Source: Escherichia coli (GTDB lineage Bacteria > Pseudomonadota > Gammaproteobacteria > Enterobacterales > Enterobacteriaceae). From it: a stretch of DNA of 45,531 bases. The stretch is from NCBI RefSeq assembly GCF_003334815.1, contig NZ_QOWO01000031.1. One strand, written 5' to 3'. A model generated the notes under the pieces. The model worked only from the letters and a program-made list of their open reading frames with translations, ran no database searches and was not told where the DNA came from. Both the position numbers and the translations under genes were made by a program. Positions 1 through 353 of this stretch are shown here, piece after piece (position 1 is the first letter of the stretch; the number at the start of each line of letters is the position of its first letter).

Positions 1-75
1 CGCGAGGCATCGTCTTAACGAGGCACCGAGGCGTCGCATTCTTCAGATGGTTCAACCCTTAAGTTAGCGCTTATG
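1..75 (-). mobile_element. Partial IS186 insertion sequence (terminal ~75 bp; the element continues beyond the window start). Terminal inverted repeat at 53-75.
   Basis: Reverse complement of 30-75 reads CATAAGCGCTAACTTAAGGGTTGAACCATCTGAAGAATGCGACGC, which I recognise as the IS186 terminus. The element ends 22 bp from the hokC stop codon. Confidence 0.7.
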
Positions 76-97
76 GGATCACTCCCCGCCGTTGCTC

Positions 98-250
98 TTA
101 CTCGGATTCGTAAGCCGTGAAAACAGCAACCTCCGTCTGGCCAGTTCGGATGTGAACCTCACAGAGGTCTTTTCTCGTTACCAGCGCCGCCACTACGGCG
201 GTGATACAGATGACGATCAGGGCGACAATCATCGCCTTATGCTGCTTCAT
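98..250 (-). CDS. hokC: Hok-family type I toxin (50 aa small membrane peptide)
   Basis: 50-aa ORF MKQHKAMIVALIVICITAVVAALVTRKDLCEVHIRTGQTEVAVFTAYESE: single hydrophobic helix plus conserved C-terminal region typical of the Hok/Gef family. Nested in the longer mok frame. Confidence 0.85.
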   Translation of the reverse strand: MKQHKAMIVALIVICITAVVAALVTRKDLCEVHIRTGQTEVAVFTAYESE

Positions 251-307
251 TGCTCTCTTCTCCTTGACCTTACGGTCAGTAAGAGGCACTCTACATGTGT
301 TCTGCAT
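98..307 (-). CDS. mokC: Mok-type overlapping reading frame controlling hokC translation
   Basis: 69-codon frame beginning with the internal Met of the 80-aa ORF (…MQNTCRVPLTDRK…) and sharing its 3' end with hokC, the classic mok/hok arrangement. Exact start is taken by analogy. Confidence 0.55.
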   Translation of the reverse strand: MQNTCRVPLTDRKVKEKRAMKQHKAMIVALIVICITAVVAALVTRKDLCEVHIRTGQTEVAVFTAYESE

Positions 308-353
308 ATAGGGGGCCTCGGGTTGATAGTAAAATATCACTCGGGGCTTTTCT
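299..353 (+). ncRNA. sokC: Putative Sok-type antisense RNA overlapping the mokC start region (coordinates approximate)
   Basis: Inferred from hok/sok architecture: the antitoxin RNA is transcribed opposite the mok initiation region. I could not identify a clear promoter or terminator hairpin by eye, so placement is by analogy only. Confidence 0.3.

Follow-up and report, generated by a model that had tools for sequence, protein, structure and literature searches.

The hok/sok locus of plasmid R1 produces a full-length hok mRNA that is kept inert and long-lived by pairing of its 5' and 3' ends (tac with fbi) until the 3' end is trimmed, as described by the Gerdes laboratory. The processed mRNA takes up the tac-ucb conformer, which is translatable and can be bound by Sok. 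Unlike the locus described here, R1 hok is plasmid-borne, uninterrupted, and active in post-segregational killing. An R1-like locus on an IncFIB plasmid (L010) has a G/C stem-loop after the stop codon and then fbi, with GGCGCUU.AGGC at one end of the mRNA pairing with GCCU.AAGCGCC at the other.

Chromosomal relatives of this system include hokC (also called gef)/sokC of Escherichia coli K-12 MG1655, which lies beside the insertion sequence IS186A (b4412/b0018/b4413). Pedersen & Gerdes (1999) are said to have described an arrangement with IS186 "22 bp downstream" in K-12 and to have proposed that hokC is inactivated there. Later papers citing Pedersen & Gerdes 1999 describe K-12 hokA, hokC, and hokE as "suggested to be inactivated", with insertion elements as the cause, and hokC has been called "likely inactive". 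An uninterrupted hokC/sokC has been reported in the literature for ECOR24.

We analyzed a 45,531-nucleotide stretch of E. coli DNA (contig NZ_QOWO01000031.1, assembly GCF_003334815.1), hereafter the window, whose left edge carries hokC next to an IS186 end. The locus shares with R1 the Hok/Gef toxin, the overlapping mok frame, the antisense Sok RNA, and the leader represented by Rfam family RF01794. Its closest counterpart is the MG1655 locus: in both, IS186 is inserted at the same point and in the same orientation, 22 bp from the hokC stop and with the 10-bp target-site duplication GGATCACTCC, and the hokC coding sequences do not differ. The K-12 arrangement named in the preliminary description of this DNA is therefore the one present. 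It is ordinary and already published, and the strain that carries it here is a natural one other than K-12.

The uninterrupted locus of strain RM13745 shows what the insertion has separated. Promoter, leader, mokC/hokC, and sokC are shared between RM13745 and the window at 99% identity. The uninterrupted hokC 3' UTR continues through a stem-loop, fbi at +49 to +61, and a bidirectional terminator shared with dnaJ, giving an mRNA of about 399 nt whose ends are predicted to be paired.

The IS186 end and its target

Positions 1-75 of the window (plus strand) are identical base-for-base to the last 75 bp of MG1655 IS186A and constitute the right-hand end of the element, the remainder of which lies to the left of the window. 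At 53-75 (plus strand), where a terminal inverted repeat had been placed in the preliminary description, the sequence reads CAACCCTTAAGTTAGCGCTTATG, which on the opposite strand is CATAAGCGCTAACTTAAGGGTTG, the terminal repeat of IS186, and it matches this 23-bp repeat at 23/23 positions. This is the right-end copy, and it is the single match in the 45.5-kb window with up to 3 mismatches tolerated, against an expectation of 0 from shuffled sequence.

The hokC stop codon occupies 98-100 (tta on the plus strand, TAA on the minus strand), and the interval from it to the IS186 repeat, 76-97, is 22 bp long, so the distance of 22 bp that had been given is exact. The GenBank IS186A feature of MG1655 (15387..16731) includes 3 bp extra per end and leaves a gap of 19 bp instead; this is a difference of convention only. 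The first 10 bp of the interval (76-85, with no strand assigned) are the right copy of the target-site duplication GGATCACTCC, and the other copies stand beside the left IS end in RM14721, YPE10, MG1655, and 3PT. In strains without the element the site reads ...GTGGCGGGGATCACTCCCCGCCGTTGCTCTTA, while in IS-carrying strains the left junction is ...GGGGATCACTCC followed by CATAAG and the right junction is CTTATG followed by GGATCACTCCCCGCC. Comparison of the junctions with and without the element therefore indicates that the 10 bp GGATCACTCC, present as a single copy in the empty site GGCGGGGATCACTCCCCGCC, were duplicated.

Genomes that match the window extend the sequence leftward. In YPE10 a 1339-bp IS186 identical to K-12 IS186A lies between dnaJ and hokC, and the partner repeat at its left end is found 1339 bp leftward in both YPE10 and MG1655. 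The YPE10 transposase is an intact 370-aa ORF, in keeping with IS186 as an IS4-family element of about 1.34 kb with one transposase (InsL, of the "IS186/IS421" type). RM14721 carries a 1338-bp copy that is frameshifted. A full element of 1338 or 1339 bp with both repeats and the 10-bp duplication was present in 4/4 of the same-orientation genomes examined (RM14721, C600, MG1655, and YPE10), as the preliminary description had anticipated in reading the left flank as IS186. The transposase gene of this copy is co-directional with dnaJ and convergent on hokC.

The insertion point is accounted for by the target preference of IS186. The lon promoter of E. coli B is reportedly an insertion hot spot of this element (SaiSree et al., 2001). 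From 59 new insertions, Lee et al. 2016 (PMC5009759) defined the IS186 target as 5'-GGGG(N6/N7)CCCC-3', a motif that is genomically rare and can be entered in either orientation. The empty site GGCGGGGATCACTCCCCGCC observed in RM13745 contains the target GGGG-ATCACT-CCCC. This is the same sequence as the hokC mRNA stem-loop GGCGGGG-AGUGAU-CCCCGCC, which starts 8 nt past the stop codon. The hokC stem-loop is thus a perfect IS186 target of the form GGGG-N6-CCCC, and the insertion has split it, with duplication of the core and flanking bases as is usual for IS186. A search of the window for a second GGGG-N6-CCCC site found none. The other hot spots, namely the lon promoter in E. coli B and fimA and menC in mutation-accumulation lines, have the same GGGG(N6/N7)CCCC motif and were likewise entered in either orientation. 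Those insertions break a promoter or a coding sequence, whereas the one at hokC parts an mRNA from its 3' regulatory elements.

Toxin, leader, and antisense RNA genes

The hokC frame (98-250, minus strand) encodes a 50-aa membrane toxin of the Hok/Gef family. It matches the Pfam HOK_GEF model PF01848 with E = 2e-24 over model positions 1-42 of 42, and scores 46.8 bits with the NCBIfam Hok subfamily model, under the curated cut-off of 73. Its DNA is identical to that of K-12 hokC. The toxin frame is intact, as had been noted earlier. The 50-aa frame carries the RefSeq/PGAP name "mokC" in these genomes. In the empty-site strain RM13745, HokC has a C30Y substitution (TGT to TAT; L004, around 3087) at one of the conserved cysteines.

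The mokC frame proper, 69 aa long, overlaps hokC in frame and uses the same stop (98-307, minus strand; ATG at 307-305). Its position matches K-12 b0018 by annotation transfer (window + 16653). Within 1-420 the window differs from K-12 by 4 substitutions, at 303, 313, 328, and 386, all of them upstream of hokC in the leader and sokC region. The one at 303 changes CTG to CAG and gives MokC L2Q relative to K-12.

The 5' leader of the hokC mRNA, with the tac, ucb, and SokC-target elements, spans 248-400 on the minus strand, placing the mRNA 5' end at about 400. The RF01794 model matches from 400 to 248 on this strand over its full length (1-157) and scores 119.8 bits, well over its gathering score of 59. 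Its consensus structure includes a 5' stem formed by nt 1-8 and nt 52-58. The name of the family is "sok antitoxin", yet the strand that matches is the sense strand of the hok mRNA and the consensus is the hok leader structure. A TATAAT -10 hexamer of the hokC promoter was read from the sequence at 407-412 (minus strand), 6 nt upstream of the first base of the leader, and it is invariant in 4/4 aligned strains. This hexamer was assigned by eye only: a consensus sigma-70 scan returned no match at threshold for a hokC or a sokC promoter, and no -35 element was identified for hokC.

The sokC antisense RNA gene, transferred from MG1655 16952..17010, lies at 299-357 on the plus strand. No convincing candidate for its -10 element was seen. 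The predicted SokC fold begins with a single-stranded 5' tail, followed by a long hairpin and then a U-tract, and has a folding energy of -23.6 kcal/mol (z = -4.7). The locus therefore has the features by which hok/sok systems are recognized on this side of the insertion: a Hok/Gef toxin of about 50 aa, an overlapping mok frame, a structured leader, and a predicted cis-antisense Sok RNA. The insertion left hokC, mokC, the hok leader, the -10 box, and sokC untouched.

Displaced 3' elements and predicted RNA folds

What remains of the hokC 3' UTR is 22 nt (76-97, minus strand), as judged by comparison with the empty site of RM13745 and with the fold of the 399-nt wild-type mRNA. Of the stem-loop, the remnant keeps the 5' arm (GGCGGGG in the mRNA, window 84-90) and the loop, but no more than 2 nt of the 3' arm. 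Neither fbi nor a terminator is present between hokC and the IS at 76-97. The empty-site comparison places both beyond the insertion point, in agreement with the preliminary description, which had proposed that the 3' mRNA elements were displaced and that an intact hok 3' element at this place would speak against it. In the interrupted locus about 1.4 kb separate fbi from the hokC stop, and fbi and the dnaJ/hokC terminator are both shifted by about 1.35 kb. The contiguous order of fbi and then terminator that follows an uninterrupted hok gene is not found in the window. Since these elements lie beyond the IS, the locus is an interrupted member of the hok/sok family.

We rebuilt the uninterrupted mRNA from RM13745 as a 399-nt RNA that starts with the first base of the leader and ends in the U-tract of the dnaJ/hokC terminator. 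In its minimum free energy (MFE) fold, nt 1-12 (GGGUGCUUGAGG) are paired with nt 352-364 (CUUCAACGCACCC), which is fbi and lies 49-61 nt beyond the stop. The insertion point falls after nt 325 and therefore before fbi. The duplex between the hokC 5' end and fbi has an energy of -18.3 kcal/mol, a value that 10% of shuffled 3' UTRs equal or better and that is therefore not significant. The case for fbi in hokC accordingly draws on its conserved position and on covariation across homologs instead of on duplex energy.

Eight distinct hok loci were compared for this purpose: hokC, hokE, a prophage copy, P1-type plasmid copies, IncFIB, pHCM1, and IncHI2 plasmid copies, and a Photobacterium plasmid copy. 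In 8/8 of them the 5' end finds its best partner between +47 and +72 past the stop, downstream of a G-run/C-run hairpin. Compensatory pairs between the 5' end and fbi include GGGUGC/GCACCC, GGCGC/GCGCC, GGUGCUG/CGGCACC, and GGGUGCCU/AGGCACCU. These partners were located with an 18-nt sliding scan; scoring the 5' end as a duplex with the whole 3' UTR was abandoned because long-loop artifacts dominated.

To represent RNAs that lack fbi, we folded the wild-type mRNA truncated after the stem-loop, a 400-nt IS-fused RNA lying within the window, and a 906-nt IS-fused RNA from RM14721. In 3/3 of these folds a stem forms between nt 1-8 and nt 52-58. This is the open, tac-ucb arrangement and agrees with the Rfam consensus, with the reservation that MFE folds of RNAs of 400-900 nt are unreliable and ignore co-transcriptional folding. 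The 906-nt transcript extends to a terminator-like hairpin within IS186 (GCCGGAAAGGGAGCTCCGGC followed by TTTTTT, L001 2503-2522), on the hokC-sense (minus) strand and about 595 nt past the stop. It is the only terminator-like hairpin found on this strand inside IS186 and is a candidate for where transcription of the fused RNA ends. In a secondary source (PMC3562002) the mRNA is said to be 644 nt long and to end 200 bp beyond the stop; these two figures are inconsistent with the site of the IS186 hairpin and with each other.

Occurrence across E. coli genomes and other hok loci

Among 5426 complete E. coli genomes, IS186 is inserted at hokC in the orientation of the window in 681 and in the inverted orientation, with the same 10-bp duplication, in 924, while the hokC site is uninterrupted in 3815. 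Together these states account for 5420/5426 genomes, and about 30% are occupied by IS186. The counts were made with 200-nt queries over the junction on the dnaJ side, which hok paralogs do not mimic. Counts from 150-nt queries over the hokC-side junction (841 and 953 genomes) were rejected because hokE-like and hokD-like genes with IS186 matched as well.

The element lies inverted at 1685-3033 in the locus of 3PT (L003) and occupies 1738-3085 in locus L001. Orientation does not track the flanking haplotype: a single substitution in 3348 bp distinguishes 3PT, with the inverted element, from the window, against 46 for K-12, which has the element in the same orientation. Inversion of the IS in situ was considered as a source of the two orientations and set aside as needless, since IS186 is documented to insert both ways at one motif. 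In the orientation of the window, read-through from hokC would be antisense to the 3' part of the transposase gene (L017 792-1904). In the inverted orientation of the 924 genomes, the hokC promoter would read IS186 in the sense direction of the transposase.

A hairpin of a G-run and a C-run is found just after the stop codon in every hok-family 3' UTR examined, and hokC is not the only gene in which it has been struck. IS186 lies 21-22 bp past the stop, within a homologous GGGG-N6-CCCC stem-loop and with a 10-bp duplication, in three other hok paralogs: hokE, a prophage hokD-like gene, and hokD-like genes of P1-type plasmids. Individual elements occupy 937-2275 in L006 (hokE of K-12), 939-2275 in L007, 937-2275 in L008, and about 2350-3700 in L015 (an IncY plasmid). 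In hokE of K-12 the element points the other way with respect to the toxin gene than it does in the window. All of these hokE, prophage, and P1-type plasmid cases concern other paralogs at genomic sites different from hokC.

A motif-driven hot spot explains all of the IS186 insertions at hok loci. A broader idea is that the hok stem-loop doubles as a landing site through which IS186, in repeated and independent events, has cut hok toxins off from their 3' control elements, and that the frequency of such insertions might reflect selection for taming chromosomal loci and not target preference alone. We regard this idea as speculative and on balance rather doubtful.

Probable consequences for toxin control

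With the element in place, the hokC transcript would continue into IS186 in antisense to its transposase gene, and the IS-fused mRNA would no longer be able to form the pairing between its 5' and 3' ends. In the absence of fbi, nt 52-58 are the predicted partner of the 5' end, a pairing that corresponds to the conformer of the processed mRNA, which is open to translation and to Sok. Because the folds that lack fbi are open, the mRNA is predicted not to be closed and silent; it would be unable to enter the inert, long-lived state and would always be exposed to SokC. The locus is likely transcribed and under continuous control by SokC and RNase III. The stable reservoir of dormant toxin mRNA would be lost and with it delayed killing, and hokC would remain potentially toxic if SokC falls. 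Taking the structure of the insertion together with these predictions, we think it likely that the dormant mRNA pool has been lost and that the toxin is still controlled by SokC. On this model the system is probably disabled as a timed killer, and the toxin gene is not dead.

The functional evidence for SokC still holding the toxin in check all comes from K-12, which carries the same allele. There, mokC-sokC duplex RNA is among the abundant products of RNase III, and the toxin transcript is stabilized in rnc mutants (PMC7373196). Knock-down of sokC was strongly deleterious in K-12 in a CRISPRi study available as a preprint (bioRxiv 10.1101/2020.03.04.975888); this phenotype could be an artifact of dCas9 bound within overlapping transcription units. 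A secondary source also states that gef is still transcribed and antisense-regulated despite the IS (PMC3562002). The preliminary description had given silencing of the toxin by the insertion as established knowledge, and in this respect it was overstated. Given the wording in the literature ("suggested to be inactivated", "likely inactive") and the K-12 data of abundant duplex RNA and an rnc-stabilized transcript, together with the open folds of the IS-fused RNA, silencing is a proposal and not an established fact.

The alternative closest to the older view is full silencing: without fbi and 3' processing there would be no translatable hokC mRNA, and the locus would be a dead relic subject to drift only. 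The displacement of the 3' elements would be in keeping with this, as would the older literature, which reads the arrangement as inactivation (Pedersen & Gerdes 1999, as cited by later papers). The allele is also common, with IS186 at the site in 1605/5426 genomes, so the insertion is well tolerated. We nevertheless consider full silencing unlikely. K-12 produces both SokC and the toxin transcript, and the two pair with each other; knock-down of sokC is deleterious there, and the conformer lacking fbi is predicted to be open. We also see no decay in hokC, mokC, the leader, or sokC, and the window and K-12 have the same hokC coding sequence despite a 1.5% difference in the flanks.

At the other extreme, the insertion could be a neutral hit at a hot spot, with hokC/sokC working as before and the IS supplying a substitute 3' end. 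The perfect GGGG-N6-CCCC target suits this explanation, being a rare motif that draws repeated insertions in both orientations, and so do the frequency of both orientations at hokC and the insertions in the homologous hairpins of other hok genes. It is nonetheless highly improbable: pairing between the 5' and 3' ends appeared in 0/3 of the folds lacking fbi (truncated, 400-nt, and 906-nt), a shared substitute element is unlikely because the two orientations give the transcript entirely different sequence, and the conserved, covarying pairing of the 5' end with fbi across the family implies that it matters. A different kind of objection concerns the element itself, of which only 75 bp lie inside the window, so that these could be a solo IS186 end or remnant with no complete element behind it. 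This is scarcely conceivable in view of the full-length elements at the junction in RM14721, C600, MG1655, and YPE10, and of the 5420/5426 genomes that have either an occupied site, in one of two orientations, or an empty one.

The reading in which the toxin remains expressed and restrained by SokC bears on how hokC is described. The "inactive" hokC of annotations and reviews is an inference dating from 1999, while the RNA data from K-12, the CRISPRi screen, and the folds suggest that the toxin is still expressed and restrained by SokC. Because the insertion is a common polymorphism (681, 924, and 3815 genomes in the two occupied states and the empty one), natural E. coli strains offer near-isogenic contrasts for the function of fbi in a chromosomal hok locus.

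Strain background

The window and MG1655 are 98.5% identical over 3142 bp, and the match ends at the IS1A that follows nhaR in K-12, an element that the window lacks at this place. Instead, according to the annotation of YPE10, 3005-7000 of the window carry a gene of the fimbrial family, an usher pseudogene that is truncated, and an espX1 pseudogene with a frameshift. The missing IS1A and the fimbrial and espX1 remnants indicate that the window derives from a natural strain and not from K-12.

The nearest genomes are of the same kind. Over 1-9000 of the window, YPE10 is 100.0% identical by BLAST, though not base-for-base identical, and 100.0% in BLAST is likewise reached by many isolates of natural origin (pork, deer, humans, and sediment). 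Over 1-3400, enterotoxigenic E. coli H10407 is 99.9% identical and RM14721 is 100% identical, the latter then having an IS1 after the fimbrial gene that is not in the window. Elsewhere in the window, and unrelated to hokC, two Rfam families match above their gathering scores: ES003 at 16194-16246 (87.4 bits) and naRNA4 at 21422-21492 (70.7 bits).
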